Under the pieces are notes generated by a model. It saw only the letters and a program-made list of their open reading frames with translations, did not search any database and was not told the DNA's origin. 64,000 bases of DNA, taken from Candidatus Gottesmanbacteria bacterium. GTDB taxonomy: Bacteria > Patescibacteriota > Microgenomatia > UBA10105 > UBA927. Positions 23,601-40,708 of the stretch are shown here, in pieces; positions within the stretch are counted from its first letter, which is position 1; each line of letters starts with the position of its first letter. A program made the translations under genes and the position numbers. Location: NCBI GenBank assembly GCA_963711735.1, contig CAVQFA010000005.1:7525-71524 (forward strand), in the 5' to 3' direction.

Positions 23601-26600
23601 TGCTATCTGCAGAAGTTCATCAGTATCTGCAATTGCCTGTGTGGTTTTTAACATAATTGCTTCAGTCGTGGTTTGGCCTGTATTTTGTCCGGATACCAAA
23701 CTTATGGTATTGCTGGCACCATTATTGGTGGTTATACTCAGTTGTCCTGCGGACGCTACTTGAATAGTGGCGTACTCAGATGTTGAATATCCAAATCTAG
23801 CTTGTGTTACGGTATCAATTATGTCTAAAGTATACTGGGGATTTGTTGTACCGATACCTAATCCGGTTGAATTCAACGTCATTACGTTGGTATAAGCTCC
23901 GCCCATATCACTAAAATCAAACATTAATGACCCTATAGCAGCACCGAGTCCGCTCGTACTTGTATTGACATAAGCCATATATTCTTTTGATTCCGATCGT
24001 GTAAACAAGGTAGAATACGCGGAACCATACCACCTGACTCCAGGTGAATATTGGTTAGCTCCACCGGCAGCAGCGGTTTCATTGACAAGTGCCAAACCGT
24101 AGACTTCTGATTGTGCTGTTCCGATAGAATTATCTAAAACGTAAAGGGAAGAAGCTGGAGATGTCGCCCCGATGCCGACGTTCCCCGCAACAGCTAAACC
24201 TGTTCCGACTGATATACCTACTCCATCCCCATACCCGATGATCGCATTCTGTTCTACATGCAGATCTGCCATCGGACTGGTAATGCCGATACCCAGATTT
24301 CCGCTACCAGTGAGCCGCATTTTTTCTGCTAACGGACCTAATGATGGTGTAGTATTGAATACGAGATTGGACGGACCTCCTACTATTGCGCTCCATGCTC
24401 CTTCTGAAAACGCGTTAATTGAAGCACCAACAACATATGTTGTACCGGTGGTATATGCTTCAAAACCTAAAGTTCCGATCCTTCTGCCTGCTGCGTCGGG
24501 AATATTCATTGAGGATAACAGGAGGGCTCCTCCTGAGGTGGTACCGAGCGCTGAGGAATTTGATATCAGTGCGCCAAGGTTTGCTGTTCCGGATGTTATA
24601 TCTATAATTTGTTTTGGTGCTGTCGTTCCGATGCCAACGTTCCCGGAGTTTATCCATGAGTACCCGTTGTTGCCTGTTGTTGTTGCATTGAGATAGATGA
24701 GTGCTGATGAAGTTGCAGTTGTGGGTTGTCCTGCCGCTACGTTACTTCCCAAAACCACACTTCTATCAACGTTAGGGTAGGGGAATAAAACATTGAGTGC
24801 CGTGTTCCAGAGGAAATCACCGCCGGGACCCTGGGCTCCGGTTTGGCCGATCGGTCCGGTTGCGCCGGTTGGGCCATTTTTTCCGGTTGCACCTGTCGTT
24901 CCTGTTGCTCCTGTCGGACCGGAAAGTCCTGTTGCTCCTGTGGAACCTGTCGCACCGGTTGGTCCTGATTTTCCTGTTGCTCCCGTGACCCCTGTTGCAC
25001 CGGTCGGTCCGGAGAGTCCTGTTGCACCGGTCGAGCCGGTTGCTCCTGTGGGACCTGATTTTCCGGTAGCACCTGTTACGCCGGTTGCACCTGTTGGCCC
25101 TGACTGGCCGGTTGCTCCCGTTGCTCCGGTAGGTCCGGTAATTCCGGTTGCTCCCGTAACTCCTGTTGCACCCGTGGGACCGGAAAGTCCTGTTGCTCCT
25201 GTGGAACCTGTCGCACCGGTTGGTCCTGATTTTCCTGTTGCTCCCGTGACCCCTGTTGCACCGGTTGGACCGGAGAGTCCTGTTGCACCGGTCGAGCCGG
25301 TTGCACCTGTCGGACCTGATTTTCCGGTAGCACCTGTTACGCCGGTTGCACCTGTTGGCCCTGACTGGCCGGTTGCTCCCGTTGCTCCGGTAGGTCCGGT
25401 AATTCCGGTTGCTCCCGTAACTCCTGTTGCACCCGTGGGACCGGAAAGTCCTGTTGCTCCTGTGGAACCTGTCGCACCGGTTGGTCCTGATTTTCCTGTT
25501 GCTCCCGTGACCCCTGTTGCACCGGTTGGACCGGAGAGTCCTGTTGCACCGGTCGAGCCGGTTGCTCCTGTGGGACCTGATTTTCCGGTAGCACCTGTTA
25601 CGCCGGTTGCACCTGTTGGCCCTGACTGGCCGGTTGCTCCCGTTGCTCCGGTAGGTCCGGTAATTCCGGTTGCTCCCGTAACTCCTGTTGCACCCGTGGG
25701 ACCGGAAAGTCCTGTTGCTCCTGTGGAACCTGTCGCACCGGTTGGTCCTGATTTTCCTGTTGCTCCCGTGACCCCTGTTGCACCGGTTGGACCGGAGAGT
25801 CCTGTTGCACCGGTCGAGCCGGTTGCTCCTGTGGGACCTGATTTTCCGGTAGCACCTGTTACGCCGGTTGCACCTGTTGGCCCTGACTGGCCGGTTGCTC
25901 CCGTTGCTCCGGTAGGTCCGGTAATTCCGGTTGCTCCCGTAACTCCTGTTGCACCCGTGGGACCGGAAAGTCCTGTTGCTCCTGTGGAACCTGTCGCACC
26001 GGTTGGTCCTGATTTTCCTGTTGCTCCCGTGACCCCTGTTGCACCGGTTGGACCGGAGAGTCCTGTTGCACCGGTCGAGCCGGTTGCTCCTGTGGGACCT
26101 GATTTTCCGGTAGCACCTGTTACGCCGGTTGCACCTGTGGGACCGGATTGACCGGTTGCTCCCGTTGCTCCGGTAGGTCCGGTAATTCCGGTTGCTCCCG
26201 TAACTCCTGTTGCACCCGTGGGACCGGAAAGTCCTGTTGCTCCTGTGGAACCTGTCGCACCGGTTGGTCCTGATTTTCCTGTTGCTCCCGTGACCCCTGT
26301 TGCACCGGTCGGTCCGGAGAGTCCTGTTGCACCGGTTGAGCCGGTTGCTCCCGTGGGACCTGACTGGCCTGTTGCTCCCGTGACGCCGGTTGCACCTGTT
26401 GGCCCTGACTGGCCGGTTGCTCCTGTTGCTCCGGTAGGTCCGGTAATTCCGGTTGCTCCCGTAACTCCTGTTGCACCCGTGGGACCGGAAAGTCCTGTTG
26501 CTCCTGTGGAACCTGTCGCACCGGTTGGTCCTGATTTTCCTGTTGCTCCCGTGACCCCTGTTGCACCGGTTGGTCCGGAGAGTCCTGTTGCACCGGTTGA

Positions 26601-38600: not shown

Positions 38601-40708
38601 GATGCACCGGTTTCGCCTGTCGCACCGCTAGCTCCCGTCGGACCGTTTTCTCCTGTAGCACCCGTTGCTCCAGTTACTCCGGTTGGACCTGATGCTCCCT
38701 GATCACCTGTGGAACCTGTAGACCCTGTTGGTCCGGATGCACCGGTTTCGCCTGTCGCACCGCTAGCTCCCGTCGGACCGTTATTTCCGGTTGCACCTGT
38801 TGCCCCAGTTGGTCCTGTTATACCGGTTTCTCCCGTTGCACCTTCCGGTCCGTTTTGTCCTGTAGGTCCTGTTGCCCCAGTTGGTCCTGTTATACCGGTT
38901 TCTCCCGTTGCACCTTCCGGTCCGTTTTGTCCTGTAGGTCCTGTTGCCCCAGTTGGTCCGAATTCTCCTGATTCTCCTTCAGTACCCGTTGCTCCGGTAG
39001 GACCTGATGCGCCTGAAGTACCTCCTATACCAGTACCTCCTGTTGGTCCGTATAAACCGGTTTCTCCGGTAGCTCCCGTTGGACCATATTGTCCCGTCGG
39101 TCCTGTTTCTCCTGTTGCTCCGGTTGACCCTGTTGCTCCGGAAGGTCCGGTCGGTCCGTTATATCCAGTCGGACCGGTTGCACCGGTAGGTCCGCCAATA
39201 TTTCCCGTTGCTCCTGTCGGTCCCGTAACGCCACCGCCACCGCCTCCACCTCCGCCACTGCCTTCACCGACCGCTGTCCATGATCCGCCGTTATACCAAT
39301 ATAATTTATTATCAGTCGTGTTGTAATAAAGAGCTCCGGCTCCCATAGCAGTCGGGGCAGAGGAGTATCCGCCGACTTGTATCTGACGGGTAAATTTCGC
39401 ATCAGAGGTAATGATGAGTGTCTGTGCAGGGGATATCACAATATTACCAAAAGCAGTCCTAATATCTGTATCTGTATCAAAAGAAAGATTACTCTGTATA
39501 TTTATCGGTCCTCCGCTGAATGACTTGATTGTATCTGTCAGAAGCGTTCCATCTACTGATAAATTACCACCGGTATACACATTTCCATTTGCATCTACGG
39601 TAAAATGAACGATTTCCGACGGACCATTCGTGAATTTTATAAAGTTATAGTGTTCGTTAGTATTTCCGACATTGGCGTATATCACATTTCCGGTTGTCAG
39701 ATTTGCATTCCGGATATCAATGGCGTTATTTGTACTCACATTGGATCTGATCTGAACCTGACCTTCTCCGTTTGGAGCAAGTGTTATGGATCCGTTGGTA
39801 AATGATGGGGTAGTGATGGTGACTGTTTCGCCGGTGATGGAAAAATTACCGGTTTTTGCAACAATTGCAGGATTTGCACCGGCAAGCAAAAGTACCCCAT
39901 CGCTTCCAATCATAGGAATTACTGTCGAAGATTCTCCTGAGTCGTCCGCTATATGGACAGCTGTTTTTATACGTATTCGTGGTGTAGATTCCGGAACATC
40001 TTTTATAGCTTCCGGATTTGGCGAGTAATGAAAGCCCAAATACACATATTCATGGGTAAAATATGAATCCCGCGGAATCATTGAGTCACCATTTAGCGTA
40101 TCGCCAAGTTTCACTTCGACACGTCCTGATGGGTCAGGTTTCACATTTTTCGTTGCAGATGTCCATATTGGCGTCCCGCCGTTTTCAGTTGTATACAGGG
40201 AAAATTGCATCACTCCGGGCTGGGTAACCGGTTTTTCTTCACGATCCTTCACTATACCGCGGAACGCGATGATCCAGGTGTTGTCATCAGCAGAAAAACC
40301 ATTGTTTGTGGCTTTATTACTATATTGTGAAAGACTACCGGCAGATGCAGGTAATTCTGTTGCGCGGGGGAAAAATGTCCTGAAAATGATGTTTTGGCGG
40401 TTTAAAAGAAGGACTGCCAGGATTAACAGAGCGCCCCCGATCGGGAAGAAAAGAAAAGGAAGAACCGATCGTCTTTTTGGGACGCTTTCGCTGTTGATGA
40501 CTATTGTTTGCGGTACATCCGAAGCAGGTTGTTTGAGGGTATTTATATCAGTCGGCTGCTTCGTATCCGTTTCAATCGTATTTTCTGACGTTCCCCATTG
40601 GATAAATTTATTGATGGAAGCCCGTTTTCTGGCTATTGTGGATGGGGCAGTGCCATTCCCGGAAAGGGAATCAAGGTACGCGTTAACGGATTCGGCAGGG
40701 ATACGCAT
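20649..40708 (-). CDS. Giant collagen-like (Gly-X-Thr)n triple-helix-repeat surface protein, about 6,700-6,860 aa if intact. It has an N-in TM anchor, a beta-rich stalk, about 4,800 aa of collagen and a C-terminal tail-fibre-like domain. It is fragmented by many apparent +/-1 frameshifts.
   Basis: ORF-track pieces in the collagen frame: 35768..40708 (starts [17 protein letters not shown] helix [21 protein letters not shown], then [19 protein letters not shown]...), the middle of 33577..37725, 32423..32872, parts of 31193..31762 and 30449..31144, and 20649..31673 from about 30800 down (about 2,000 aa of [16 protein letters not shown]..., then a ~1,370-aa non-collagen C-terminus ending ...RFNWWIIN). 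Other frames of the same DNA give Q/E-rich and R-rich shadow ORFs. Confidence 0.8.
24850..30150 (-). repeat. About 20 near-identical tandem copies of a 261-bp (87-aa, 29-triplet) unit inside the collagen gene, built from 45-bp (15-aa) sub-repeats G-x-[15 protein letters not shown].
   Basis: Identical 85-aa shadow ORFs at 25076, 25337, 25598 and 25859, spaced 261 bp apart. Protein unit: [87 protein letters not shown]. Confidence 0.85.
32900..39240 (-). repeat. Degenerate 9/18/45-bp collagen-triplet repeats ([13 protein letters not shown] and [22 protein letters not shown] types).
   Basis: Periodic ggtcctgattctcctgttgcacctgttgatcct-type DNA on the + strand. The collagen frame is visible in ORF 35768..40708 and the middle of ORF 33577..37725. 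Confidence 0.7.

Follow-up and report, generated by a model that had tools for sequence, protein, structure and literature searches.

A giant threonine-rich collagen-like gene beside a glycosylation island in a Gottesmanbacteria genome: a candidate O-glycosylated surface fibre

The collagen region of BclA from Bacillus anthracis is densely glycosylated, its threonines carrying GalNAc-Rha3-anthrose (PMC10050317), and in Clostridioides difficile the threonines of BclA3 are modified with N-acetylglucosamine (GlcNAc) by SgtA, the product of the gene immediately upstream of bclA3 (PMC7157674). In streptococci, pairs of GT-A and GT-C glycosyltransferases modify extracytoplasmic Ser/Thr-rich regions, and the adhesin genes lie in the same cluster; the GT-A enzyme makes a sugar-P-undecaprenol, and a GT-C enzyme with an acidic DxD external loop transfers the sugar (PMC12041528). 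In the cuticle collagen of Riftia pachyptila, Thr rather than hydroxyproline dominates the Y position of the Gly-X-Y repeat, and galactosylated Thr stabilises the helix (Mann 1996 and Bann 2000, cited in PMC11923368). Here we describe a giant collagen-like fibre gene, and the genes around it, in a 64,000-nucleotide (nt) stretch of a Candidatus Gottesmanbacteria genome (contig CAVQFA010000005.1, positions 7,525 to 71,524). This whole stretch is called the window, and all coordinates are window positions. The initial annotation of the window had taken the gene for a BclA-like O-glycosylation substrate next to a glycosylation cassette. It is highly probable that the giant gene encodes a membrane-anchored surface fibre of a Gottesmanbacteria-like Patescibacterium, and the odds that its collagen is glycosylated appear, from the genes present, to be roughly even. 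For the two combined, ie that the fibre is made and its collagen glycosylated, we estimate a probability of about 0.45.

The giant gene was read by a frame-following translation, a walk along the minus strand from the ATG at 40708 in which the Gly-X-Y phase was tracked. The walk ends at a TAA at 20649-20651 after 6,687 codons, with zero internal stops. As assembled, the same DNA gives two literal open reading frames (ORFs), 35768-40708 (1,646 amino acids, aa) and 20649-31673 (3,674 aa). These were not accepted at face value, because the Gly-X-Y phase switches frames and the 3,674-aa ORF is off the collagen frame from 30,865 to 31,673. The 1,646-aa ORF had no exact counterpart in the protein collection. 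The gene, its parts and the ORF next to it are as follows.

20649..40708, minus strand: giant collagen-like fibre gene, conceptual product of 6,687 aa, the Gly-X-Y frame being followed across about nine single-base insertions or deletions (indels)
39185..40708, minus strand: N-terminal non-collagen region, aa 1-508, with half of a Phage_int_SAM-like domain, a transmembrane (TM) anchor, a stalk of about 380 aa and a poly-Gly run
32880..39184, minus strand: collagen array A, about 700 triplets, with periods of 36, 45, 81 and 126 nt and indels near 35887 (+1) and 35031 (-1)
24813..32870, minus strand: collagen array B, about 890 triplets, with periods of 45 and 90 nt and a 261-nt higher-order repeat (85% matches)
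30865..32545, minus strand: cluster of seven single-base deletions in the collagen frame, in which the deleted contexts recur (GGACAACAGGACCC three times, GGACTCCAGGACC twice)
20652..24812, minus strand: C-terminal distal region (1,387 aa), in which motifs recur, a 'DIAENF...' module is conserved, and the final 85 aa or so make up a beta-sandwich that closes with FNWWIIN
40713..41228, minus strand: 171-aa SAM-like protein (integrase N-terminal type), ending 4 nt before the giant ORF

Three unbroken Gly-X-Y runs (aa 509-2611, 2614-3150 and 3165-5300, window 24813-39184) make up 1,592 triplets. Thr occupies the Y position in 1,251 of them (78.6%) and Ser in 260 (16.3%), ie 94.9% or 1,511 sites; in the non-collagen parts of the giant protein Thr accounts for 11.6% of residues and Ser for 9.9%. 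The exact count therefore bore out what the initial annotation had said of this region, which it placed at 24770-39240: that Thr or Ser dominates the Y position, and that there are more than 1,500 potential sites. The X position is filled chiefly by Ala (590), Pro (337), Ser (226), Glu (104) and Val (102), and the commonest triplets are GAT (554), GPT (332), GST (214) and GVT (93). A 300-aa piece (window 25752-26651) scored 160 bits on the Pfam Collagen model PF01391, for which the cut-off is 27. Between 24.8 and 39.2 kb the GC content rises from about 0.45 to 0.56-0.63 and the AT skew is strongly negative, and Tandem Repeats Finder reported nested repeats of 27, 36, 45, 90, 126 and 261 nt. 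The copies of the repeat are only 70-85% alike as DNA, and all four Thr codons are mixed at the Y position (ACA 645, ACC 360, ACG 200, ACT 46), which argues that the bias at Y is held at the level of the protein, beyond recent duplication of the DNA. At 0.286 nm per residue, the 4,776 collagen residues have a predicted length of about 1.37 µm.

At the N-terminal end, aa 3-42 correspond to the latter half of a SAM-like domain of the integrase type (PF02899, E 0.0058, profile positions 43-82). A single hydrophobic TM helix follows a basic patch at about aa 80-104 (approximately window 40397-40471), and between this helix and the collagen there is a predicted extracellular stalk of about 380 aa and then the poly-Gly run. 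The SAM-like domain is divided, in that the 171-aa ORF ends with the first half of a second such domain and the giant ORF begins with the second half; a +1 shift at GGA-TAA-T would join the two. The split looks real, because an independent Logan contig has the same 171-aa ORF and the same spacing. In two relatives (L001 and P0029) there is one continuous ORF.

At the other end, no Pfam family was matched across the C-terminal 1,406 aa, and the similarity of the distal region to tail fibres is weak (PHROG 18345, E 2e-6; tail fibre of Synechococcus phage S-SM2, E 5e-4). In an AlphaFold2 (AF2) model of the fibre tip the pLDDT reached 89-97 for the last 85 aa only. A Foldseek search of the PDB with this model, most of which is of low confidence, gave no significant match, the best being the C-terminus of a phage depolymerase (E 0.027). 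A C1q-like or lectin-like assignment for the tip was dropped, as the confident part of the model was limited to those 85 aa and no fold match was significant. We infer that the distal region nucleates trimerisation of the chain and that it binds a target such as a host cell.

A search with the distal region found 182 homologues, all of them large proteins of Patescibacteria (Gottesman-, Woese-, Davies-, Collier-, Roizman- and Levybacteria; Microgenomates group). They often have an N-terminal MerR, excisionase or SAM-like helix-turn-helix (HTH) domain and a TM helix, and frequently a Peptidase_S74 domain; the order within one chain is HTH, TM helix, collagen, and a distal domain ending FNWWIVN. 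Species-representative genomes were scanned with the last 300 aa, yielding 69 loci, and 74 loci in all were used in the neighbourhood comparisons. The best matches among the 69 are from Gottesmanbacteria, with 47% identity over the last 300 aa, and identity over the distal region to P0001, from the Microgenomates, is 34%. Collagen (at least 10 triplets) is present in 15 of the 74 related loci, with Thr at 47-90% of Y positions in all 15, and is absent from 105 of 120 protein hits. The arrays of the relatives span 16 to at least 1,115 triplets, compared to 1,592 in the window gene. Those of L067, L001 and L053 have 644, 405 and 379 triplets, respectively, and that of L002 has at least 1,115, running into the contig end and containing N gaps. 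Across these loci collagen appears to be an optional module of the fibre family and a Thr-rich Y position a family trait, the window copy being the longest found. Literature searches returned no published account of this fibre family, nor of collagen-like proteins in Patescibacteria or the Candidate Phyla Radiation.

Six contigs break off within the repeat. Public contigs end in, or carry runs of N within, Gly-X-Thr arrays at L002 (1-10987), at L001 (6710-10492) and at the locus starts of L007, L014, L017, L018 and L052. The true sizes of such genes are therefore probably underestimated in the databases.

The genes that could supply and transfer sugars, together with the other neighbours that enter the argument, are listed below.

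6889-7899, plus strand: RmlB-like 4,6-dehydratase (Pfam and NCBIfam)
7952-8644, plus strand: short family 2 glycosyltransferase (GT2), with ArnC, AglJ, PpgS and PgfS as its best NCBIfam neighbours
8620-9786, plus strand: DegT aminotransferase (Pfam and NCBIfam)
10056-11603, plus strand: putative multi-TM GT-C glycosyltransferase with a weak PMT_2 hit (AF2 model, Foldseek, DxDE motif)
11801-12523, plus strand: short GT2 (Pfam and NCBIfam)
12496-13320, plus strand: methyltransferase (Pfam and NCBIfam)
13361-13897, plus strand: WcaF-like hexapeptide acetyltransferase (Pfam and NCBIfam)
13866-15041, plus strand: dTDP-4-amino-4,6-dideoxygalactose transaminase of the DegT type (406 bits, cut-off 375)
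15105-16202, plus strand: GT2 with C-terminal TM helices (Pfam and NCBIfam)
16156..18210, minus strand: Wzy_C-like/TPR membrane protein (684 aa; about 11 TM helices, and a TPR domain at the C-terminus), from an orthologous group of the O-antigen-ligase superfamily
18300-19130, 19171-19941 and 19948-20448, plus strand: three type IV pilin-like genes (N_methyl hits)
47380..48879, minus strand: second GT-C (PMT_2) membrane glycosyltransferase, on the opposite flank of the giant gene (48.4 bits, cut-off 26.1)
3098..6448, minus strand: pair of paralogous multi-TM proteins matching no Pfam family, 4805-6448 being intact (547 aa) and 3948-4802 with 3098-4354 a frameshifted copy

By the Pfam and NCBIfam assignments, the neighbourhood 6889..16202 is a genuine glycosylation island, and it is syntenic in the closest relatives. 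In this respect the initial annotation was right, and the cassette it gave as 6889-18210, separated from the giant gene by three pilin genes, was located as described. Its description of the product as a diamino-sugar was not upheld: the dehydratase is RmlB-like and not PglF/PseB-like, and the one aminotransferase to pass a curated cut-off does so as the dTDP-4-amino-4,6-dideoxygalactose enzyme. The pathway supported by these gene assignments is one leading to a 4-amino-4,6-dideoxyhexose.

Among the island's products are enzymes of kinds that could modify an exported protein, namely two short GT2s that resemble polyprenyl-phosphate sugar synthases, and a GT-C. The two short GT2s (7952-8644 and 11801-12523) scored 62.6 and 89.3 bits on the Pfam GT2 model, and no C-terminal TM helices were found in them. 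The product of 10056-11603 has approximately nine hydrophobic segments, and immediately after TM1, the site of the catalytic acidic motif in GT-C enzymes, carries D40-x-D42-E43, which is invariant among 43 aligned sequences. Its AF2 model is a confident one (pLDDT 91.9, pTM 0.93) and points to a GT-C fold. The top 31 Foldseek hits in the PDB are all GT-C or GT-C-type membrane enzymes, including AglB (E 2.4e-8), PglB, STT3, ArnT, DPY19, ALG9, Pmt4 and EmbB, for which the query TM-scores lie around 0.5. It represents a Gottesmanbacteria-specific family and is not YfhO.

To assess conservation of the neighbourhood, the 74 loci were searched by tblastn with the window proteins. No neighbour of the fibre gene is better conserved than the Wzy_C-like/TPR gene, an orthologue of which is present in 44 of the 69 genome loci (46 of all 74), always downstream on the strand of the fibre gene and always 600-780 aa long. 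The conserved order, (LeuRS)-(SAM-like)-fibre-(three pilins)-Wzy_C-like/TPR, where LeuRS is leucyl-tRNA synthetase, was seen among loci L006-L074, with the Wzy_C-like/TPR gene typically 1-6 kb downstream of the fibre; at those 44 species-representative loci it crosses several candidate phylum-level lineages. The pilin trio adjoins the fibre gene in 26 of the 69 loci. It occurs together with the Wzy_C-like/TPR gene in 20, and the latter is found without pilins in 24. No paper describing this gene order was found in the literature searches. In the window, the first two pilins (18300 and 19171) have long Pro/Thr-rich C-terminal tails of the PTNTPPSGPGPAPTNTPP type, eg PTNTPPSGPGPAPTNTPPSGPGPAPTNTPP.

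The assignment of the Wzy_C-like/TPR protein to the Wzy family rests on Wzy_C Pfam hits in 7 of 35 full-length orthologues (best E 1.2e-14), because other approaches gave little: a homologue search with the TM half returned 2 hits only, and a profile of the TM part found no chain in the PDB. A PDB profile search with the whole alignment returned TPR proteins only. Between the window copy and the L004 orthologue, identity is 29% over 700 aa. Invariant residues in the orthologue alignment, which includes no known ligase to set the register, are G254, G256, N273 and G297; W278 and F282 come close, and there is no invariant His or Arg.

The sugar cassette adjoins the fibre gene solely in the six closest relatives (L006, L007, L008, L011, L014 and L018). 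All 4 evaluable loci among them also carry collagen (Fisher p = 0.007, uncorrected for phylogeny), an overlap that may be plain synteny because these loci are close relatives. Membrane glycosyltransferase-like genes seem to recur beside these fibres generally, as far as can be said with no background rate for random Patescibacteria windows. A second arrangement occurs in L005, L009, L010 and L020, where the gene of a collagen-bearing fibre with an HTH N-terminus is followed by Rho and then by a DUF2298 membrane protein of about 750-830 aa; in L020 there are in addition PMT/PMT_2 and epimerase genes, and in L005 a YfhO gene.

In the mechanism that we propose, the cytoplasmic SAM-like fragment and one TM helix would anchor the N-terminus in the membrane, and the collagen, some 4,776 residues, would assemble as a trimeric rod about 1.4 µm long, with a tail-fibre-like tip at its far end. 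Such a length is several times the diameter of a Patescibacteria cell. The chain would be exported unfolded. The dehydratase, aminotransferases, acetyltransferase and methyltransferase would produce a nucleotide-activated 4-amino-4,6-dideoxyhexose derivative, and the short GT2s would place sugars on polyprenyl phosphate. The GT-C at 10056-11603, possibly that at 47380-48879, and/or the Wzy_C-like/TPR protein would then transfer the sugars to Thr and Ser at Y positions on the outer face of the membrane, after which the chain would zip into a rod from the C-terminal domain. By analogy, the route would be lipid-linked and outside the membrane, similar to that of Pgf/GtrB, and not the cytoplasmic route of BclA. 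A bolder proposal can be made, namely that this is an undescribed Patescibacteria fibre module in which an expandable Gly-X-Thr spacer, of 0 to about 1,600 triplets, is O-glycosylated outside the cell by a coupled Wzy_C-like/TPR protein and GT-C, with glycosylation needed for folding and the fibre acting as the long-range host tether of an ultra-small episymbiont. We regard it as unlikely to hold in all its parts.

A serious competitor, to which we give somewhat less than an even chance, is that the fibre is real and its collagen unglycosylated. Thr and Ser at Y would then replace hydroxyproline through hydration, and the island would serve the pilins, other parts of the fibre, or envelope glycans or lipids. 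A number of observations weigh against glycosylation of the collagen, and several of them bear directly on this alternative. Thr is the commonest Y residue of bacterial collagen-like proteins in any case (31.6% overall, 48.3% in Gram-positives), and most of these proteins are not known as glycosylated (PMC8968730); bacterial, archaeal and viral sequences are enriched in TGA and TGP triplets (PMC11923368). Thr at Y is a generic bacterial and viral pattern. By itself it is no sign of glycosylation, because it is found in every collagen-bearing relative whether the cassette is nearby or absent, and L009, L010 and L067 have collagen and no window-type cassette within 10 kb. The presence of the Wzy_C-like/TPR gene is unrelated to that of collagen (6 of 12 loci with collagen vs 38 of 57 without). 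The pilins sit between the cassette and the fibre gene, and 20 loci, as already mentioned, have both the pilin trio and the Wzy_C-like/TPR gene. The mucin-like tails of the two adjacent pilins are themselves obvious O-glycosylation candidates and, to judge by their composition, acceptors equally good as the collagen. The acceptor of any of these transferases is not readable from sequence. The fold neighbours of 10056-11603 span protein-, lipid- and glycan-directed enzymes, with ArnT, EmbB and ALG9 among those directed to lipids or glycans.

The enzyme assignments have limits of their own which count on the same side. Both short GT2s scored 45-58 bits on the NCBIfam models for ArnC, PgfS, AglJ and PpgS, the cut-offs being 325-529, and all GT2 hits in NCBIfam are far under the equivalog cut-offs. 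The product of 10056-11603 scores 21.7 bits on PMT_2, under the cut-off of 26.1, so its assignment as a GT-C rests on the AF2 model and on Foldseek matches with TM-scores near 0.5. The window copy of the Wzy_C-like/TPR protein gave no Wzy_C hit even at E values up to 10, and the conserved His of the ligase motif in this family, which has a catalytic His/Arg in WaaL and PglL, is not evident in it.

An unglycosylated rod of this composition would be short of the other known means of stabilisation. Charge pairs and Pro stabilise other bacterial collagens (PMC8968730). The collagen part here has few charged residues (E 111, K 33, D 10, R 0), and Pro, with 337 of its 348 occurrences at X, fills the X position in 21% of triplets. 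With charged pairs so scarce and Pro at that level, the stabilisers that do not depend on hydroxyproline are weak, and Thr and Ser at Y must stabilise the helix by hydration or through sugars. The model peptide (Gly-Pro-Thr)10 is a random coil unless its Thr is galactosylated (PMC11923368), and GT-C or Wzy_C-type genes flank fibre genes even where pilins are absent, as in the 24 loci that have the Wzy-like gene and no pilins. We still prefer the reading in which the collagen is glycosylated.

A decaying pseudogene or a mis-assembled repeat, in which the frameshifts are real or the length of the array an artefact and no 6,687-aa protein exists, is distinctly improbable. It has some facts on its side, and these count against an intact fibre. 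The giant gene is broken as assembled, a feature that the initial annotation overlooked. Its literal frame-0 translation ends at 35768, and the collagen frame shifts about nine times, near 35887, 35031, 32542, 31706, 31269, 31225, 31088, 30954 and 30865. These positions were found from the 9-nt phase of GG dinucleotides and then from three-frame displays. Each is a single-base insertion or deletion in an otherwise regular repeat, for example GGAGAGTCC-A-GGACCC, or GGACAA-CAGGACCC in place of the expected GGACAANCAGGACCC. Seven of the indels are packed into 1.7 kb, with identical deleted contexts two or three times over; the recurring contexts would fit context-specific consensus error, and would also fit real mutation copied by duplication. 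Another assembly of the same organism, that of run ERR12037368 in Logan, also differs from the window at N-terminal aa 151.

On the other side, the Gly-X-Y frame is flawless for 6 kb beyond the last collagen indel, and after it comes the stop-free, non-repetitive domain of 1,387 aa, which is conserved to its final residue, through FNWWIIN. Array sizes in relatives range from 400 to over 1,100 triplets. The essential LeuRS gene is split in the window into ORFs 41830-43827 and 43760-44536, the break (43760-43830) falling between the DEPFP segment and the KMSKS motif. In the ERR12037368 assembly, which has the same 171-aa neighbour protein, LeuRS is unsplit, in one ORF of 1,158 aa that includes ComEA domains, which argues that the indels are a property of the assembly. 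A paralogue of 4805-6448 is broken by a frameshift into ORF 3948-4802, its N-terminal part, and ORF 3098-4354, its C-terminal part, so that indel errors affect unique sequence of the assembly too. Because LeuRS and another window gene are likewise frameshifted, the nine or so indels are most likely errors of assembly or consensus, and a single intact giant gene would be the likeliest truth. The two assemblies differ at the LeuRS/ComEA boundary as well as at aa 151, and neither is a gold standard. Two further Logan contigs repeat the 5' end of the gene (about 590 aa) and its 3' end (1,429 aa), and both end at the repeat.

At approximately window 40250 the ERR12037368 Logan contig has the N-terminus of the giant gene as a 151-aa ORF followed by a 441-aa ORF to the contig end, where the window has one frame. 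Just past LeuRS, at 44608-47405, lie ComEA (SLBB and HHH_3) and ComEC (Competence domain); ComEC is apparently split into 45459-46358 and 46374-47405, possibly by a frameshift. The multi-TM paralogues at 3098..6448 may be further proteins of envelope glycosylation, and homologues of the 4805-6448 family adjoin fibre genes in L005, L009 and L011.

That the gene belongs instead to a phage or prophage, as a tail-fibre gene into which a collagen spacer is built, and not to a cellular surface structure, deserves very little credence. The weak similarity to tail fibres, the many homologues that carry Peptidase_S74 and are named 'tail fiber domain-containing', and the integrase-type SAM-like domain upstream speak for it. 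Against it, the window has no genes for phage structure or replication, LeuRS, ComEA/ComEC, pilin and sugar genes being the neighbours; the order LeuRS, SAM-like, fibre, pilin, Wzy-like is kept across many Patescibacteria lineages; and the protein has an N-terminal membrane anchor, with no Peptidase_S74 (PF13884) found in it. A prophage origin was rejected on this cellular context and conserved synteny.

Chains as long as 6,000 aa are on record for bacterial collagens (PMC11923368). Richness in Thr, possible glycosylation and great chain length are all known for these proteins, and what is extreme in the window gene is its length and its content of Thr and Ser. The conserved pairing of the fibre with pilins and a Wzy_C-like/TPR protein is an undescribed lead; present with the Wzy_C-like/TPR gene in 44 of the 69 loci, it may lead to a protein-glycosylation or fibre-assembly system in a poorly known phylum. 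If made and glycosylated, the fibre would be among the longest collagen triple helices of any organism, from one of the smallest kinds of cell. It would be a concrete candidate for host contact by uncultured Patescibacteria, and a natural test of sugar-bearing Thr replacing hydroxyproline over micrometres. Going by this locus, short-read assemblies systematically cut such genes short and long-read ones break their frame, so that both their size and their frequency are underestimated.

Compared to BclA and BclA3, the window gene has similar Gly-Pro-Thr-type triplets with Thr at Y (78.6% here), the same polarity, with an N-terminal anchor and a globular C-terminal end distal, and sugar or glycosyltransferase genes near the collagen gene. 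The anthrose of BclA is a methylated, N-acylated 4-amino-4,6-dideoxyglucose, and the enzyme classes of the cassette (4,6-dehydratase, DegT, acyltransferase, methyltransferase) match those needed to make it. The likeness ends outside the repeat, where there is no homology. BclA is the product of a spore-forming Firmicute and has an exosporium-targeting N-terminus, tens of triplets (1,592 in the window gene) and a C-terminal trimerisation domain, a beta-jellyroll of the C1q/TNF type. In the giant protein neither Pfam nor Foldseek found a C1q-like domain, within the limited confidence of the model, and no exosporium-targeting N-terminus was found, a TM anchor and SAM-like fragment being there instead; the organism is a non-sporulating Patescibacterium, and all relatives are Patescibacteria. 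BclA is modified by soluble enzymes in the cytoplasm of the mother cell, whereas an exported chain here would need a lipid-linked GT-C route. The description of the gene as BclA-like therefore holds for its Gly-Pro-Thr-rich triplets and Thr at Y and fails for membership of the family. Of the wider interpretation, the Thr/Ser count and the glycosylation context stand, and the glycosylation itself is something that we infer.

For the route of modification the closest mechanistic analogue would be the streptococcal Pgf/GtrB-PgtC system. As there, two short GT2s (near PgfS, ArnC and PpgS) accompany a GT-C with DxDE after TM1, and there is a Ser/Thr-rich exported neighbour. The window system differs in that its GT2 hits are far below the equivalog cut-offs, its GT-C is not YfhO, its candidate acceptor is a structured collagen repeat rather than a disordered linker, and it is known from genes alone. 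The cuticle collagen of Riftia pachyptila is micrometre-long, and in it, as in (Gly-Pro-Thr)n peptides, Thr dominates Y as in the window gene; it is an animal extracellular-matrix protein of the secretory pathway, with unrelated flanking domains and glycosylation enzymes. The true homologues are the giant 'tail fiber domain-containing' proteins of Patescibacteria, which share the same domain order and the same neighbourhood of LeuRS, SAM-like, pilin and Wzy_C-like/TPR genes; unlike most of them, the window protein has the collagen module, and Peptidase_S74 was not found in it. By homology, these unnamed Patescibacteria fibre proteins are its closest true relatives.

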